Source of the DNA: Dehalococcoidia bacterium
GTDB taxonomy: Bacteria > Chloroflexota > Dehalococcoidia > Lucifugimonadales > Australimonadaceae
Direction: 5' to 3'
NCBI GenBank assembly: GCA_965201135.1
Contig: OZ241751.1
Coordinates: 1,780,248 to 1,844,247, forward strand
DNA: 64,000 bases
A program made the translations under genes and the position numbers. The notes under the pieces were generated by a model. It was not told where the DNA came from, did not search any database, and saw only the letters and a list, made by a program, of their open reading frames with translations. This document shows positions 938-39,521 of the stretch, one piece after another; positions within the stretch are counted from its first letter, which is position 1; every line of letters begins with the position of its first letter.

Positions 938-2170
938 TCACGGGCGGGCGGGGCGAGGGGCGGGAGCGCCGGGGCGCTTGACGAGCGTCTCGCGGGCGCC
1001 GAAGAGCAGCAGAGCCGCCGCGATCAGCAGAACGGGCGCGTAGACGAGAAACGCGAGCCCCGCGCCGTAGCCCACGGCGAGTATGCCGCCGAGCAGCGGG
1101 CCGCTGATGGCGCCCACCTCCGCGAACGTCCGCCGCGCCGCCTGCAACCGCGCCCGCGCCGCGTCCGGCACCACGTCGTAGGTGGACGTCGCCACCGACC
1201 CAAGCGACAGCCCGTTCGAGAAGCCCATTAGCGCCGCTATCGCCGCAAGCCCCGCGAAGCCGTCCGTCATCGGAATGAACAGGAACGCGACGCCGGGAAT
1301 CGCCGTGCTCGGCACCGTCGCCCACTTGCGCCCAATCTTGTCGACGACGAATCCCGCCGGGAGGATCATCACCAGCGAGCCCGCCGTCATCACGGAAAAG
1401 AGGAAGCCGATCTCTCCGGACGAAAGGCCGATCTCGTCCGCGTAGACGGGCAGCACGCCCTGATACGACATCCGGTAGAGCATCATCGCCATCGTGGCGA
1501 ACACGAGCGCGAGGTAGGTCGTCCGCAGAGAAGGGTCTATTTGCAGGAAGAGGCTCTTCAGCCGGACGAGCCAGTTCCCGCCTTGCGCCTCGGGGCGCGC
1601 CGCGCTCCGCTCCGGCGCTTGCGAGTTCGGAATGAACAGCCCTAGCGCGAAAACGGCGGCGGCGAGCGCCGTGTAGATGACGAACACGAGCCGGAAGCCG
1701 ACCTCGTCGCCGATGAGCCCGCCGGCGAGCGCGCCGATTCCCATGCCGACGGAGTTGAACCCCATAAAGCCGCTCATCAGCCTGCCGCGCTGCTCCGGCT
1801 TCACGAGATCGACGCCGGCCACCTCGCGCCCCAGCATCCACCCGCTGTCGGCGGCGCCGGCGACGAACAGCGCGGCGAGCAGCGGCCACAGCCACGGCGT
1901 CACGACGCCCGCGAACACGGCGAGCGTGATGACGACGGGGCCGAACGTCACCGCCGGGCGCGTTCCGAACTTGTCGATGAGCGCTCCGCCGAGCGGCTGC
2001 CCGACGAGGCGCCCCGCCGCGAACGCCGTCACCGTCTGCGCCGCGATCCCTCCTTCGACGCCGAACTCGCCCGCGATGAGCGGAATGACGGGGAAGAGCA
2101 TGCCGTGCCCGACGCCCATGAGGATGGTCGTCAGGTAGAGCATCGTCAGCCCGCGCGCAATCCGGCCCAT
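938..2170 (-). CDS. MFS transporter
   Basis: 410-aa ORF with about 12 hydrophobic segments. It has an MFS loop-like motif GRLVGQPLGGALIDKFGTRP. The overlapping 455-aa ORF 843..2210 is an Arg/Gly-rich shadow. Confidence 0.8.
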   Translation of the reverse strand: MGRIARGLTMLYLTTILMGVGHGMLFPVIPLIAGEFGVEGGIAAQTVTAFAAGRLVGQPLGGALIDKFGTRPAVTFGPVVITLAVFAGVVTPWLWPLLAALFVAGAADSGWMLGREVAGVDLVKPEQRGRLMSGFMGFNSVGMGIGALAGGLIGDEVGFRLVFVIYTALAAAVFALGLFIPNSQAPERSAARPEAQGGNWLVRLKSLFLQIDPSLRTTYLALVFATMAMMLYRMSYQGVLPVYADEIGLSSGEIGFLFSVMTAGSLVMILPAGFVVDKIGRKWATVPSTAIPGVAFLFIPMTDGFAGLAAIAALMGFSNGLSLGSVATSTYDVVPDAARARLQAARRTFAEVGAISGPLLGGILAVGYGAGLAFLVYAPVLLIAAALLLFGARETLVKRPGAPAPRPARP

Positions 2171-2276
2171 CGAGCCCTCCCGCTCCGCCCGCCGGAGCCG
2201 CCTGCCTCACTATACGCGCATTGCTCCCTGCGCGGGCTCACGCACAGCCTCCGAACGCCCCGCCGCGCCCAGCGCC

Positions 2277-2575
2277 GTCATTCCCGCGTAGACGAGAATC
2301 TCGCCTCCATTTGAGACGCGCAAGCACCGAATCCCTCTCTCCCTAGAAGGGGAGAGGACGCCGCGAACGCGGCGGGAGAGGGTACTGCGGTCGGGGCGCG
2401 CCGCGTTGGGGTAGGTTCCCCCTTTGCGCGTAGGCGAGGCGCTCTCCGGTAGGTTCCCGCTTTCGCGGGAATGACGATGCGCCTGAGGATACGGGGAGAC
2501 AGGGCGCGACGCGCCCCGTCCTATGGCGCTTGCGCGCCGGAATGGATTCCTGCCTACCGCAGGAATGACGGCGTA
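2277..2575. repeat. Palindromic repeat mosaic
   Basis: Modules A, B, C, D and E, plus a reverse-oriented type II unit (GGTAGGTTCCCGCTTTCGCGGGAATGAC ... GGAATGGATTCCTGCCTACCGCAGGAATGAC). Confidence 0.9.
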
Positions 2576-32423: not shown

Positions 32424-33629
32424 GAGACCTTTGCATAACCTTCCGCAATCGCGCACAATGACCGCAACCCGCAACCGCGAGGAGACTGCTATGCATCTCG
32501 AAGCCAGCGACCCCTCCTTCATCGACGCCTTCCTCCCTTTCAACGCAGGCCGCAACGACAGACTCGACCGCATCGACCGCCTCATCGATTGGCCCAAAGT
32601 CGCAGCCCTACTCGACGATGTCCACGCCGCGCCCGAAGGACGGCCCGCCTACCGCCCGATCACGATGGTCAAGATCATCGTCCTCCAGCAGTGGTACGAC
32701 TCCTCCGACGTCGGCATGGAGGAGGCGCTCCAAGACCGGCTGTCGTTCCGCCGCTTCGCGGAGCTCACGCTGACGGACGCGGTTCCCGACCACTCGACGA
32801 TCAGCCGGTTTCGGAAGAAGATCACGGAGCGGGGGCTGGCGCGGGCGCTGTTCGCGGAAGTGAATCGGCAGTTGGAGGCGAAGGGCATGCTGGTGAAGCG
32901 CGGAACGCTGATCGACGCGACGATCATCGAGGCGCAGGCGCGGCGCCCGCATTCGGAGGCTGGAGCGCGGAGCGGAACGGACCCCGACGCCGCGTGGACG
33001 AAGAAGGGGAAGAAGTCGCATTTCGGCTACAAGATGCACATAGGGATGGACGCGGGGTCAGGGCTGGTGCGCGGGGTTGAGTTCACGCCTGCGAACGTTG
33101 CGGACACGGATGTTGCGGACGCGCTGATCATGGGGGACGAAGAGGCGGTGTACGCGGACAAGGCGTATGAGTCGAAGGAGCGTCGTGAGCGTCTGCGGGC
33201 GCAGGGCGTGAAGGATCGGATCATGCATCGGGGGCATAAGCATCAGACGGAGCTGCCGCATTGGCAGCGGCGGCGGAACGGGCTGCTGTCGAAGGTTCGG
33301 GCGCCGGTGGAGCAGGTGTTTGGGACGCTGAAGCGCAGCTATGGGTACTGGCGGGTTCGGTACATGGGGCTAATGAGGAACGAGGCGGAGGCGTTGTTCA
33401 AGGCGCTGGCGTACAACCTGCGGCGCGCGGACGGGTTGAGAGAGGGTTGCGCTGTGCATGGGTAGGGGCGTATTGCGCCCGTTGGGGGTACGAGGCCCTG
33501 CGAAGCCCCTAAATTGGGGGCGAGCAGGGGAGGTGGAGGCCGTTATCGGGGGATTTGGGCGGTTGAATGGCTGATTCCGGGGGCGCGGAACTGCCGATCG
33601 CGCTGATGCGAGGGTTATGCAAAGGACTC
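32424..33629 (+). mobile_element. Intact IS5-family insertion sequence (1206 bp)
   Basis: Terminal inverted repeats are GAGACCTTTGCATAACC (32424..) and GGTTATGCAAAGGACTC (..33629). There is a 5-bp direct repeat TATAG at 32419..32423 and 33630..33634. It is inserted in the loop of repeat module C (CCTCTCCCCT-TATAG / TATAG-GGAGAGGGGG). Confidence 0.9.
32491..33465 (+). CDS. IS5-family DDE transposase
   Basis: Start at ATG 32491. ..TMVKIIVLQQWYDSSDVGMEEALQDRLSFRRFA..LIDATIIEA..ADKAYES..VEQVFGTLKRSYGY.. are typical IS5-group motifs. Confidence 0.9.
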   Translation: MHLEASDPSFIDAFLPFNAGRNDRLDRIDRLIDWPKVAALLDDVHAAPEGRPAYRPITMVKIIVLQQWYDSSDVGMEEALQDRLSFRRFAELTLTDAVPDHSTISRFRKKITERGLARALFAEVNRQLEAKGMLVKRGTLIDATIIEAQARRPHSEAGARSGTDPDAAWTKKGKKSHFGYKMHIGMDAGSGLVRGVEFTPANVADTDVADALIMGDEEAVYADKAYESKERRERLRAQGVKDRIMHRGHKHQTELPHWQRRRNGLLSKVRAPVEQVFGTLKRSYGYWRVRYMGLMRNEAEALFKALAYNLRRADGLREGCAVHG

Positions 33630-35543: not shown

Positions 35544-35672
35544 CTCTTCCGCTCCTTCCAATGTCGCCGAGCCTCGCCATCCGCCGGACGCATCATAGTC
35601 TACTCCCCAAGCCTGACGGCGGGCGAGGCGGCTTTGCTACAATCATCGCCCAGCGCAGGAGGACAATTCCCT

Positions 35673-36695
35673 ATGGGCGTGCCCGCGTCGCAGGCTTGGA
35701 CGGTCGCCGCCTACGTGCTCAAGCAGCGCGTCAGGCGCCGCGAGCGCTATCCGCTTGTCCTAATGCTGGAGCCCCTCCTGCGCTGCAACCTCGCCTGCGC
35801 CGGATGCGGCAAGATCCAGTATCCCCCGCATGTCCTCAAGCGCGCCCTCTCCGTCGAGCAATGCCTCGCCGCCGTCGAGGAGTGCGGCGCCCCCATCGTC
35901 AGCATCCCCGGCGGCGAGCCGCTCCTCTATCCCCATATCGGCGAACTCGTCAAGGAACTCGTCCGCCGCAAGAAATACGTCTACCTCTGCACGAACGCCC
36001 TGCTGCTGAGCGAAAAGTTGGCCGAGGGCGTGTTCGCGCCCTCCAAGCGCCTCACCTTCAGCGTCCATATGGACGGCCTCCGCGAGGAGCACGACGCGTC
36101 CGTCTGCCGCGCCGGCGTCTACGACATAGCGACCGACGCCATACGCGACGCCATACGCCGCGGCTTCCGCGTAACCACCAACACCACGCTCTTCAGCGCG
36201 TCCGAGCCCGCCCGCGTCCGCGACTTCTTCGACGCGATGACGGACCTCGGCGTCGAAGGAATGATGATCTCCCCGGGCTACTCCTACGAGAACGCGCCCG
36301 ACCAAAACTCCTTCCTAGAGCGCGAGAAAACCCGCGAACTCTTCGCCCAAGCGCTCGCCGGCAAGAAGAAGCGCTGGCGGTTCAACCAGTCCCCCCTCTT
36401 CCTGCAGTTCCTGATGGGCAAGCGCGAGTTCGAATGCCTGCCCTGGGGCAACCCCCTCTACACCATCTTCGGATGGCAGCGCCCTTGCTACCTCCTGCAA
36501 GACGGCTACGCCCCGACCTTCCGCCAACTGATGGACGAGACCCCGTGGGAGGAGTACGGGCGCGCCAGCGGCAACCCTCAATGCGCCGACTGCATGGTGC
36601 ACTCCGGCTACGAGCCCGCCGCCGTCCACGCGACGTTCGCCACCTGGCGCGGCCTCCGCGACGCCGCAGCCGCCACGCTCTCCGGCAGGCTCTAA
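35673..36695 (+). CDS. hpnH: Adenosyl-hopene transferase (radical SAM)
   Basis: Start at ATG 35673 after AGGAGGA. ..RYPLVLMLEPLLRCNLACAGCGKIQYP.. (CxxxCxxC), ..YLCTNALLL.. and ..WGNPLYTIFGWQRPCYLL..CADCMVHSGYE are collinear with HpnH. Confidence 0.9.
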   Translation: MGVPASQAWTVAAYVLKQRVRRRERYPLVLMLEPLLRCNLACAGCGKIQYPPHVLKRALSVEQCLAAVEECGAPIVSIPGGEPLLYPHIGELVKELVRRKKYVYLCTNALLLSEKLAEGVFAPSKRLTFSVHMDGLREEHDASVCRAGVYDIATDAIRDAIRRGFRVTTNTTLFSASEPARVRDFFDAMTDLGVEGMMISPGYSYENAPDQNSFLEREKTRELFAQALAGKKKRWRFNQSPLFLQFLMGKREFECLPWGNPLYTIFGWQRPCYLLQDGYAPTFRQLMDETPWEEYGRASGNPQCADCMVHSGYEPAAVHATFATWRGLRDAAAATLSGRL

Positions 36696-37174: not shown

Positions 37175-37492
37175 ATGATCCCTATGAACGAGCGCATAGC
37201 ATCGCCTTCCGCCACGGAAGAAGAGAGACGCGGCGAAAGCGCCCCCGTCGCCGATCTCATCGAGCGCGCCTTCCGCTTCCGCGGCGACGTAACCCTCACG
37301 ACGGCGGACGGCGCCGAGATCACCGGCTATCTCTACAACCGCGACGGCGCAAGCGTCCAACTCTTCGAAACCGCCACCGGCCGCGACCTCTCCCTGCCCT
37401 ACTCCGCCCTAACCGCCGTCCGCCTCACCGGACGCGACACGGCGACCGGCAAGCATTTCGAATCCTTCCAGCGCCGCCGCGCCCGGCAATGA
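37175..37492 (+). CDS. Hypothetical protein in the hopanoid cluster
   Basis: 105 aa. Its stop overlaps the hpnG start (ATGA). Composition is non-shadow (..RFRGDVTLTTADGAEITGYLYNRDGASVQLFE..). No family recognised. Confidence 0.45.
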   Translation: MIPMNERIASPSATEEERRGESAPVADLIERAFRFRGDVTLTTADGAEITGYLYNRDGASVQLFETATGRDLSLPYSALTAVRLTGRDTATGKHFESFQRRRARQ

Positions 37493-38538
37493 CCTCCCCC
37501 GCCATCCTCATCGTCGCCCCCACGAAGCGCGAACTCGGCGGCCTGCGCGAAACGAACGCCCGCTCTTCCCTCTCCGCAGCGAAACGCGAAGAGAACGCCC
37601 GCGCCCCTATTCGCGAAACAGAACGCGATGAAGACGCCTACGCCGCCGAACGCGAGATCGAGCGCGAGACGGACGACCGCGCTCGAATTGCCCTTTGCGG
37701 AATCGGGCGCGAAGCCGGAGAGCGCGTCGCCGCCCTCCTGGACGCCGCCCCATGCTCCCTGGTCGTCTCGCTTGGCTTCGCAGGCGCCCTCGACCCCGCC
37801 CTCCGCCCCGGCGCCCTCATCGTCGCCGACGCCTTCCTCTACGCCGACGCGCCCCCTCTAGCCCCGCCCGCCCCCCTCTCCCTACAGAGACCTTTGCATA
37901 ACATACCGTCATTCCGGCGTAGGCCGGAATCCAGAGGCGCGCAAGCGCCGAATCCCCCTCTCCCTATAAGGGGAGAGGACGCCGCGAACGCGGCGGGAGA
38001 GGGTACTGCGGACGGGGCGGCGGGGTTATGCAAAGGTCTCCTACAAGGGGAGAGGGCGGGGGAGAGGGTACTGGCGACAGGAGATGAGCGAAGCATTGAC
38101 GGGGCGCAGCCCCGTCTCCACGATGAATCATCGGGCCGCGTCATTCCCGCGAAAGCGGGAACCTACCCCTCCGGCGCGCTCCTCACCGTCGACGCGCCCC
38201 TCCTTACGCCCGCCGCCAAGCGCCGCGCGCGAGCCGCATCCGGCGCCGCCGTCGTGGATATGGAGGGGCGCCGCATCGCCGAGGCCGCAGCCGAGCGCGG
38301 CGTCCCCATCGTCGCCGTCCGCGCCGTGATCGACGAGGCCGACTTCGCGCTCCCGCCGTTCGCCGCCGAAATCGCCGCCGCACGCGGACACGACGAACGG
38401 GCGCGCGCGTTCCGCGCCGCCGCCAACCCCCGCGAGGCCGCCGGCATGCTCCTCCTCGCGCTCCGCGCCCGAAAAGCCGCCCGCAGCCTCCGCCGCGCCG
38501 CCGACGCCATCCTCGCCGCCCAGCCGGAGCGCCCGTGA
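37489..38538 (+). CDS. hpnG: Hopanoid-associated phosphorylase (HpnG-like) carrying a ~100-codon in-frame repeat/MITE insertion
   Basis: The N-terminal part reads ..ALCGIGREAGERVAALLD..LVVSLGFAGALDPALRPGALIVADAFL. The C-terminal part reads ..GALLTVDAPLLTPAAKRRARAASGAAVVDMEGRRIAEAAAERGVPIVAVRAVIDEAD. Both match the nucleoside-phosphorylase-like HpnG layout. The segment ~37870..38168 between them is made of the intergenic repeat modules. Confidence 0.7.
   Translation: MTSPAILIVAPTKRELGGLRETNARSSLSAAKREENARAPIRETERDEDAYAAEREIERETDDRARIALCGIGREAGERVAALLDAAPCSLVVSLGFAGALDPALRPGALIVADAFLYADAPPLAPPAPLSLQRPLHNIPSFRRRPESRGAQAPNPPLPIRGEDAANAAGEGTADGAAGLCKGLLQGERAGERVLATGDERSIDGAQPRLHDESSGRVIPAKAGTYPSGALLTVDAPLLTPAAKRRARAASGAAVVDMEGRRIAEAAAERGVPIVAVRAVIDEADFALPPFAAEIAAARGHDERARAFRAAANPREAAGMLLLALRARKAARSLRRAADAILAAQPERP
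37887..38030. mobile_element. MITE (144 bp) with IS5-family terminal repeats, inside the hpnG reading frame
   Basis: GAGACCTTTGCATAAC ... GTTATGCAAAGGTCTC ends. There is a 5-bp direct repeat CTACA at 37882..37886 and 38031..38035, and the flanks reconstitute module C (CCCTCTCC-CTACA-AGGGGAGAGG). The interior consists of modules A-B-C-D-E. Confidence 0.85.
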
Positions 38539-39521
38539 CGCGCATCCTCGTAACCGGAGCGTCCGGCTTCATCGGTCGCCACGCGGCGGCCGCCGCCGCG
38601 GCCCGAGGCTACGAGGTCGTCGCGCTCGTCCGCGACCCCCAAACCTACCGCCTGCCCGACCATCCCGTCATCGTCGCGGAGGGCGACGCGCGCGACCCCA
38701 TAGCCGTCCGCTCCGCCCTCGACGGCTGCGGCGCGCTCCTCCATATCGCCGGGCTCTACACGTTCGATCCCGCGAAAGCCGCGCTGATGCGCGAGGTCAA
38801 CGTCGGCGGAACGCGCAACGTCCTCCGCCAAGCGCTCGCCGCCGGAGTCGAGCGGATCGTCTACACCGGCACCGTCGGCGGCTCCGCCTTCTCCGACGAC
38901 CGCCTCGCCGACGAGCGCGACCTCGCCGGGCCCGAGGCGATGCGCGGCCCTTACAAACGCTCCAAGTTCGAGGCCGAGCGCGTCGTCCGGCGAATGGCCG
39001 CGCAAGGCGCCCCCATCGTCACCGTCTGCCCCACCGCGCCTATAGGCCCCGGCGACGAGAAGCCCACGCCCACGGGCAAAATCACGCTGGACTTTATGCG
39101 CCGACGCCTTCCCGCCTACGTGGATACCGGCCTCAATTTCGTCCACGTGCGCGACGTCGCCGAGGGGCACCTCCTCGCGCTGGAGCGCGGCGCGCCGGGA
39201 GGCCGCTACCTGCTGGGGAACGCCGACGGCAACCTCACGCTCGCCGAGGCGCTCCGCATCCTCTCCGCGATCACCGGCCTCCCCGCGCCGCGCCTTCGCG
39301 TCCCCCGCGCCGCCGCGCTCGCCGCCGCCCGCGCAACCGCCGCCGTCGCCGGAGCGCTCCGCCGCCCGCCTCCCATCCCGACGGAAGCCGCGCAAATGGC
39401 CTCCCAGCGTATGTGGGTTGACCCCAGCCGCAGCGTCCGCGAACTCGGGCTGCCCCAAACGCCCGTCCGCCAAGCCTTCCGCGAAGCCGTCGAATGGTTC
39501 GCGCAGCATGGCCTTGCGTAG
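38535..39521 (+). CDS. hpnA: Hopanoid-associated sugar epimerase (NAD-dependent epimerase family)
   Basis: MTRILVTGASGFIGRH.. is the Rossmann motif. 328 aa, translationally coupled to hpnG (GTGA overlap). Confidence 0.8.
   Translation: MTRILVTGASGFIGRHAAAAAAARGYEVVALVRDPQTYRLPDHPVIVAEGDARDPIAVRSALDGCGALLHIAGLYTFDPAKAALMREVNVGGTRNVLRQALAAGVERIVYTGTVGGSAFSDDRLADERDLAGPEAMRGPYKRSKFEAERVVRRMAAQGAPIVTVCPTAPIGPGDEKPTPTGKITLDFMRRRLPAYVDTGLNFVHVRDVAEGHLLALERGAPGGRYLLGNADGNLTLAEALRILSAITGLPAPRLRVPRAAALAAARATAAVAGALRRPPPIPTEAAQMASQRMWVDPSRSVRELGLPQTPVRQAFREAVEWFAQHGLA

Follow-up and report, generated by a model that had tools for sequence, protein, structure and literature searches.

Introduction

Palindromic repeats that are read in frame inside protein-coding genes have been described as Rickettsia palindromic elements (RPEs) (Ogata et al. 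2000, 2002, as summarized in the review PMC10969869). Two other described systems are pertinent: the hairpin repeats of the NTS/SRM type, including the neisserial dRS3, whose association with a small GIY-YIG gene defined ssnA and the Ssn single-strand nucleases (PMC11893778), and the MITEs (miniature transposable elements with inverted repeats) that derive from prokaryotic insertion sequences (PMC10969869). The present analysis concerns a 64,000-nucleotide stretch (termed the window) of the genome of a Dehalococcoidia bacterium (GenBank assembly GCA_965201135.1, contig OZ241751.1, positions 1,780,248 to 1,844,247), in which a putative nucleosidase gene of hopanoid synthesis, hpnG, carries a block of dispersed hairpin repeats and a nested MITE within its open reading frame. 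The reading favoured here, with a probability of roughly 0.75 on sequence comparison and structure prediction, is that this is a functional hpnG with a tolerated, hypervariable and repeat-coded loop, predicted to be disordered, which replaces a helix of the fold.

By analogy, the nearest known phenomenon would be that of the in-frame RPEs. As with RPEs, the repeats are dispersed, palindromic and non-autonomous, they are found in several unrelated housekeeping genes of one genome, they are stop-free in frame, and the host genes are conserved. There are also clear differences. The organism belongs to the Chloroflexota/Dehalococcoidia and its repeat sequences are unrelated, i.e. they appear to work like RPEs but are not members of those families. 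The hpnG insert is a mosaic of short hairpin modules with a nested MITE, whereas an RPE is, in that review, one element of ~150 bp that gives one conserved peptide. The frame in which an hpnG module is read differs between lineages, close relatives show hypervariability at the site, and the insert does more than lengthen a loop, as it takes the place of a native helix. In addition, of 681 repeat clusters scanned, five (<1%), hpnG included, have a stop-free frame and coding-like flanks, whereas nearly half of RPEs are in frame according to the same review. In-frame residence of repeats in this genome is rare but recurrent.

Results and Discussion

The repeat block in the hpnG open reading frame

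The hpnG reading frame (Table 1) encodes 349 amino acids and is continuous through the repeat block, as the first-pass annotation had read it. A BLAST search of positions 37860..38175 against the genome itself shows that coverage by other copies jumps from 16–30 to ~100 at 37872, stays at 100–760 to ~38168 and then drops; the flanks of the block are unique in the genome. The block limits proposed earlier (37870–38168) are therefore right within 2–3 bases. The proposal that the central codons are translated dispersed repeat modules also holds: each module has 100–760 other copies in the genome, and each is present in 8–14 copies within the window. The coding frame is stop-free across the block, and each of the five other frames has 1–6 stops. 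Among 300-nt genomic repeat windows (n = 942), 7.5%–22.6% are stop-free in a given frame.

Removal of the block as an intron, an intein or another RNA element was considered and rejected; there is no Rfam match at E ≤ 1. A search of the block for promoter- or terminator-like sites found none.

Replacement of a native helix

Orthologs were collected from 18 other genomes of the genus; one more genome gave no match at the threshold used. The ordinary orthologs have a chain length of 230–232 aa. In those examined, the middle segment, which lies between the strand ..PGDLVVA.. and the strand ..LTVDEPLL.., has a constant length of 35 aa and contains a helix, HTTRAAMLLRQSG, and a short strand, ISALEG. 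The helix, which in relatives includes HTTRAAMLLRQSGISALE, aligns with the inter-strand helix of MTAN. This helix is not present in the window protein. The repeat DNA is bordered by ..YADAPPLAPPAP at its left end and by ..PSGALLTVD at its right end, and ~20 native residues are missing. The block is a replacement and not a pure insertion. The first-pass annotation had proposed a simple insertion into the coding sequence; this agrees with the absence of a repeat segment from ordinary orthologs, but not with the replacement of the native 35-aa helix segment.

It had also been proposed that removal of the block restores a normal protein of ~250 aa. This does not hold, as the normal size is 230–232 aa. 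The agreement of 349 minus 100 with a normal size is accidental, because a second variable insert, of 39 aa near the N-terminus, offsets the lost native residues. This N-terminal segment consists of ERE..DAYA-like units (Table 1). Its length also varies among alleles, with 7 codons in P0010 and P0013 and more than 60 in P0009, P0014 and P0016. A dispersed repeat is ruled out as its source by its uniqueness in the genome (BLAST). The ERE..DAYA-type segment looks like an acidic/basic coding minisatellite.

One genome of the genus, G002, shows a different arrangement. Its hpnG (245 aa) keeps the helix and has 22 extra residues before it, and the DNA for these residues is a decayed repeat, CCCTCTCTCGCCCAACGGGAGAGAG followed by GGATTCCCGCCTACGCAGTCGGGAC.

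A MITE nested in module C

The MITE has a perfect 16-nt inverted repeat, GAGACCTTTGCATAAC, as its two arms (37887–37902 and 38025–38040). Inside it are an NTS-like hairpin (37907–37934), a hairpin GGCGCGCAAGCGCC, a module C hairpin and a module D hairpin. The sequence CTACA is present on both sides (37882–37886 and 38041–38045), and the MITE together with this 5-nt duplication adds 159 nt, i.e. exactly 53 codons. The MITE end sequence occurs 9 times in the window, where 0 are expected, and these occurrences include both ends of an insertion sequence at 32424..33629 whose open reading frame matches DDE_Tnp_1 and DUF772, i.e. is IS5-like.

The MITE splits the loop of the hairpin CCCCTCTCCCTA-CA-AGGGGAGAGG. 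At this site the unbroken hairpin CCCCTCTCCCTACA(A/G)GGGGAGAGGG is found in alleles P0004, P0005 and P0013, and in the latter two the empty-site hairpin reads CCCCTCTCCCTACAAGGGGAGAGGG. Allele P0002 shares the MITE at the same site, with one end base changed. None of the other eight clade I alleles that were fetched contains the element; P0018 has only a left-end-like sequence there. The first-pass annotation had proposed two nested events, a repeat block and then a MITE with a CTACA duplication, and the empty sites in P0004, P0005 and P0013 together with the filled site in P0002 bear this out.

The element is similar to the prokaryotic MITEs derived from insertion sequences (PMC10969869) in that it has the same ends as a resident IS5-like element and a target site duplication of 5 nt, and in that both filled and empty sites are found among relatives. 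It differs in that it carries captured host hairpins as cargo, is directed at the loop of a different repeat and has here entered a coding sequence, where its length preserves the frame.

The hpnG block of genome G008 (locus L003, positions 1880–2330, minus strand) has two copies of the left end of the MITE or insertion sequence (GAGACCTTTGCATAAC) but lacks a right end, and 60 nt in it are perfectly duplicated in tandem. The appearance is that of partial MITEs or of copies that have undergone rearrangement.

Hypervariability of the site across a clade

A protein search yielded ~29 further hpnG variants of 245–375 aa from metagenomes. With G008 and two more loci, the number of block-bearing alleles comes to at least 33, and their middle segments measure 36, 52, 58 and up to 175 aa. 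They differ in the number and kind of modules, and the helix is present in none of the 33. At least one C-D module (..PLSLQGER.GERVL..) is found in every block allele. An equivalent hairpin can be read in different frames, e.g. as VIPAKAGTYP in the window and as SFPRKREPT in G008.

In a gene tree all block alleles and G002 form one clade (100/100). The tree needs two changes for the loss of the helix; its well-supported branches allow one. Copies of the module A hairpin number 942 in the window genome (G000), 802 in G002 and 740 in G008; the counts made in five further members of the genus are 1–86. When 1.84 billion proteins were searched for HpnG-like sequences, the match was split into two or more stretches in none of the top 150 representatives except those of this clade and two proteins of 260 aa.

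The block site is old, hypervariable and clade-wide. This is contrary to a recent one-off landing: the site varies across the whole clade, and G002 has a decayed 22-aa repeat remnant at the same spot. The comparison with related genomes that had been proposed does yield empty and alternative alleles, i.e. the ordinary orthologs without a block, and the varied blocks of the alleles described here.

A search with the C-terminal 119 aa as sole query gave eight short proteins, and two of these, on long contigs, were looked at (L127, positions 1850–2917, and L128, positions 1787–2791). In the public annotation only the last 138 and 96 residues of hpnG have been called at these loci, yet frames of 355 and 334 aa are open. 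Both of the C-terminal “fragments” examined are intact full-length frames that the gene caller under-called; repeat-bearing genes of the clade are therefore under-called in public protein sets.

Selection on the flanks

Selection was estimated with the Goldman-Yang (GY94) codon model on 192 flank codons outside the two variable zones, using the 10 block-bearing alleles whose DNA was fetched. The flank omega is 0.059, with a log likelihood of -1348.7 compared with -1456.3 at omega = 1 (107.6 units; twice the difference = 215), and omega = 1 is rejected. It is also rejected in each half separately: omega is 0.034 for the N-terminal 74 codons and 0.083 for the C-terminal 118 codons past the block. 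Both flanks are under strong purifying selection. Pairwise omega values by the Nei-Gojobori method (NG86) among the six closest alleles are 0.06–0.35 for hpnG and resemble those of hpnA in the same pairs (0.07–0.15). In eight close alleles, 30 variable codon columns are synonymous only and 14 change the amino acid. Of the 10 alleles checked at the DNA level, 9 have stops across the block in each of the six frames except the coding one.

Catalytic residues and predicted structure

The window protein matches PF01048 (PNP_UDP_1) with 65.7 bits. Its best NCBIfam match is TIGR03468 (HpnG) with 117.1 bits, below the curated cut-off of 187.1. Uninterrupted orthologs of the genus score 105–119 bits, likewise below the cut-off, and the low score is thus attributed to divergence of the lineage and not to the block. 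The family-invariant residues E15, D257-M258-E259, R278 and D282 are present, are invariant in 47 relatives, and align with the catalytic Glu, Met-Glu, Arg and Asp of MTAN. In its PNP_UDP_1 fold, its catalytic residues, the vicinity of hpnH and hpnA and the presence of a squalene-hopene cyclase gene in the genome, the locus is similar to HpnG of Proteobacteria, and to MTAN and futalosine hydrolase; it differs in the missing helix between the sixth and seventh strands and in the two variable inserts.

AlphaFold2 was run with a 47-sequence alignment. The predicted local distance difference test score (pLDDT) is above 90 for the core (residues 1–22, 63–130 and 225–349). The block (residues ~131–225) is unstructured in the model, with pLDDT below 50 at residues 142–152 and 157–220, and core confidence resumes at ~225. 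The N-terminal insert has a pLDDT of ~50–60. The block is thus modelled as a disordered excursion from an intact MTAN-like core. The best Foldseek matches of the model are MTAN and futalosine hydrolase (probability 1.00). The possibility that the shortest segment (36 aa, in P0016) rebuilds the helix was also considered and is unsupported; AlphaFold2 gives it a pLDDT of 62–69 and a helix of only 4 residues.

Weighing of the readings

The first-pass annotation had left a choice between a tolerated loop and a recently inactivated gene that happens to remain open. The tolerated loop is favoured by an omega of ~0.06, and a pseudogene that is “open by luck” is unsupported: there is no frameshift or stop, the catalytic residues are kept and omega is far below 1. 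On this evidence HpnG would be made and active, and the loop, disordered in the model, would be harmless. The frame would be kept by selection on the enzyme and probably, in addition, by translational coupling to hpnA.

Several points weigh against this reading. The fold lacks a regular helix, for which no confident substitute is given in either AlphaFold2 model, and the confidence in the core is alignment-driven and says nothing on stability. The assignment as HpnG rests on a below-cut-off family score and gene context. The maximum-likelihood omega of 0.059 was obtained under F3X4 codon frequencies in a 68% GC genome and is probably an underestimate. The terminal branch of the window genome has five private changes, three of them non-synonymous (L92V, D109A, G299R) and two synonymous; selection may have been relaxed recently in this genome alone, a matter on which a single branch is uninformative. 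(Position 109 is Asp in 38 of 47 relatives and Ala, Ser or Thr in the others.) Lastly, most alleles were found as called proteins, which could lead to under-sampling of broken alleles, and two of the eight C-terminal fragments were examined.

Unlikely, though the best of the alternatives, is an enzyme that is dead in the window genome or in the whole clade, with the frame held open by the need of hpnA for in-frame ribosomes or by chance at high GC. The overlaps of start and stop codons (see below) do imply translational coupling, the helix has been lost, the private changes, D109A among them, are 3:2 non-synonymous, and ~35% of random 300-nt windows of the genome are open in an arbitrary frame. 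Coupling, however, selects for an open frame and not for particular residues, whereas omega is ~0.03–0.08 (maximum likelihood) or ~0.17 (NG86) in both halves and no family-invariant catalytic residue has been lost. Of the repeat windows, only ~15% are open in a given frame and a length that is a multiple of 3 is needed as well, and the presence of an open coding frame alone among the six in 9 of 10 alleles also argues against chance.

It is improbable that the segment has been co-opted, be it as an arm that binds a membrane or a partner near the hopane pocket, as a substitute for the helix, or in regulation of the operon by a stable mRNA structure. In MTANs the loop that precedes the adenine-binding loop helps to form the pocket for the 5′ substituent. 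The segment directly precedes a strand and loop, LTVDxPLL, which align with that adenine-binding loop, and the constant presence of a C-D module is in accordance with a role. The predicted RNA fold of the block is also very stable (-183 kcal/mol, z = -7.3), but such folds are simply expected because the repeats are palindromic. Against co-option, close relatives differ nearly five-fold in the length and content of the segment, the reading frame of the modules is not the same in all lineages, AlphaFold2 shows no confident structure, and ordinary orthologs manage without the segment.

A related possibility, which is held to be just as doubtful, is a recombination-driven diversity cassette within an enzyme. 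Here the NTS hairpins, as putative targets of an Ssn-like nuclease, and the MITE would form a hotspot for the exchange of modules with copies elsewhere in the genome, selection would keep the in-frame products, and the arm would now do what the lost helix did or would serve a new function, e.g. contact with the membrane or with hopane. If true, this would be a natural case in which a free-standing metabolic enzyme has acquired new protein sequence from selfish hairpin DNA.

That repeat DNA was misjoined into the gene during assembly or binning is most improbable. The genome is a single contig assembled from a metagenome, and repeats are difficult for assemblers, but a block at this site, between conserved in-frame flanks, recurs in more than 30 independent assemblies, which come from different samples and from short-read as well as long-read projects.

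Proposed history of the block

If hpnG is functional and the loop tolerated, the following order of events may be proposed. The genus has a repeat-rich sub-clade; in an ancestor of it, hairpin modules would first have entered the loop ahead of helix three of the MTAN-like fold. G002, with its decayed 22-aa repeat remnant and intact helix, may represent a surviving first stage. The helix-coding DNA would then have been lost and the segment opened to gain, loss and duplication of modules, and in the window lineage an IS5-type MITE would have inserted into a hairpin loop. Survivors would be only the in-frame, stop-free variants, because HpnG is still needed to remove adenine from adenosylhopane and because hpnA is coupled to the hpnG stop.

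The hpnG locus and hopanoid context

The genome of the window is a single, metagenome-assembled contig of 2.94 Mb (67.9% GC). The records of its relatives are of uncultured Dehalococcoidia/Chloroflexota, some of them SAR202, and several, to judge by their isolate or sample labels, appear to come from sponge metagenomes.

The open reading frames around hpnG are listed in Table 1. The earlier placement of hpnG in mid-operon with overlapping start and stop codons on both sides is correct: orf105 and hpnG overlap by ATGA (37489–37492), and hpnG and hpnA by GTGA (38535–38538). HpnG is thought to strip adenine from adenosylhopane (Bradley 2010, Liu 2014, as cited in PMC12583986). The squalene-hopene cyclase gene shc is found elsewhere in the genome (727 bits). 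The hpnG gene is single-copy in the window genome and there is no back-up paralog; the sole other PF01048 gene of the genome is of a different type. In some relatives two or three uninterrupted hpnG copies are present, i.e. at two loci in G031 and at three in OY759598.1 (L067, L069, L072).

Searches of Pfam and NCBIfam with orf105 gave no match. A 97–105-aa open reading frame is located immediately 5′ of hpnG in most fetched relatives, and it overlaps the hpnG start where both are fully called. It may be an unrecognized component of the hopanoid cluster of this lineage.

The trio orf105-hpnG-hpnA is constant, and its neighbors vary from genome to genome (relatives L039–L048) even at ~95% protein identity. 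The neighbor is hpnH in some; in others it is pheT-moeA, a CoA-transferase together with an MFS gene, a PMT_2 gene or a WD40 gene. The changing neighbors suggest frequent rearrangement at repeat arrays.

Identity of the repeats and other host genes

Module A has two mismatches to the 28-nt neisserial NTS motif, CGTCATTCCCGCGMAVGCGGGAATCYRG (motif from PMC11893778). The genome has 692 copies within two mismatches of this motif, compared with 0 for a reversed control. Three small GIY-YIG open reading frames (Table 1) match PF01541 with 53–64 bits; each has module A hairpins within 600 nt on both sides, and two of the three are near-identical. The motif match, the copy number and the hairpin-flanked GIY-YIG genes, which are ssnA-like by family and context, are features shared with the NTS/SRM and Ssn system. 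A difference is that NTS repeats are rarely intragenic, 2% in Neisseria meningitidis (PMC11893778), whereas here two copies are found in one coding sequence, in an open frame. A classical system of repetitive extragenic palindromes and their associated tyrosine transposases (REP/RAYT) was rejected: the genome has no PF01797 (Y1_Tnp) match, and the control search was positive in 6 of 14 well-known genomes.

The four other genes found in the scan of repeat clusters are given in Table 1. In a first genome search, other long open frames over repeats proved to be mostly spurious GC-rich antisense frames, with only the MFS transporter real.

Table 1. Features of the hpnG locus and of related loci elsewhere in the genome. 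Positions are those of the window, except for those with the prefix G000:C1.
Feature	Position	Strand	Remarks
hpnH, adenosylhopane synthase, maker of the presumed HpnG substrate	35634..36695	+	TIGR03470, 515 bits, above cut-off
orf105, conserved small open reading frame, function unknown	37175..37492	+	stop overlaps hpnG start
hpnG-like nucleosidase/phosphorylase gene	37489..38538	+	349 aa, open throughout
N-terminal variable segment, residues 22–67, ERE..DAYA-like units	37552..37689	+	46 codons
Variable middle segment, residues 121–231	37849..38181	+	between strand ..PGALIVADAFLYAD and strand LLTVDAPLL
Left half of module C hairpin (CCCCCTCTCCCTACA)	37872..37886	+	last 5 nt are the CTACA target duplication
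IS5-type MITE, 154 bp	37887..38040	+	16-nt perfect terminal inverted repeats, no open reading frame of its own
Second CTACA copy, right half of module C and module D-like piece (AAGGGGAGAGGGCGGGGGAGAGGGTACTGGCGACAGG)	38041..38080	+	
Module E (hairpin GGGGCGCAGCCCC and GTCTCC..)	38098..38138	+	~330–350 genome copies
Module A, NTS/SRM-type hairpin (CGTCATTCCCGCGAAAGCGGGAACCTAC), right junction	38139..38166	+	read as ..VIPAKAGTY..
hpnA, hopanoid-associated sugar epimerase-like	38535..39521	+	GTG start overlaps hpnG stop
Small GIY-YIG open reading frame (~95 aa)	G000:C1:718982-719302	-	outside window
Small GIY-YIG open reading frame (~95 aa)	G000:C1:388585-389139	+	outside window
Small GIY-YIG open reading frame (~95 aa)	G000:C1:1069961-1070380	+	outside window
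MFS transporter, block in central loop	G000:C1:699770-701389	-	outside window
6-phosphogluconolactonase (pgl), PF01182 match split by block	G000:C1:520781-522505	-	outside window
uvrC, PF08459 split by block	G000:C1:1451412-1453679	+	outside window
HTTM/gamma-carboxylase-like (VKGC-like) protein, block between two domains	G000:C1:2216382-2218031	+	outside window

Implications

Should the reading of a functional hpnG with a tolerated loop hold, the residence of selfish DNA in coding genes, which is known mainly from Rickettsia, would extend to uncultured Dehalococcoidia that appear sponge-associated (by the labels mentioned above), and with a different repeat class, i.e. NTS/SRM-type hairpins and an IS5-type MITE. 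There is also a caution for annotation. At least two alleles have been cut by gene callers and the family models score below threshold, such that the capacity for hopanoid side chains could be under-called. The more than 30 natural alleles are of an enzyme of known fold that is without a regular helix, has 36–175 repeat-coded residues in its place and is still under purifying selection. They may be considered a natural experiment on the tolerance of the MTAN fold to loop insertion.

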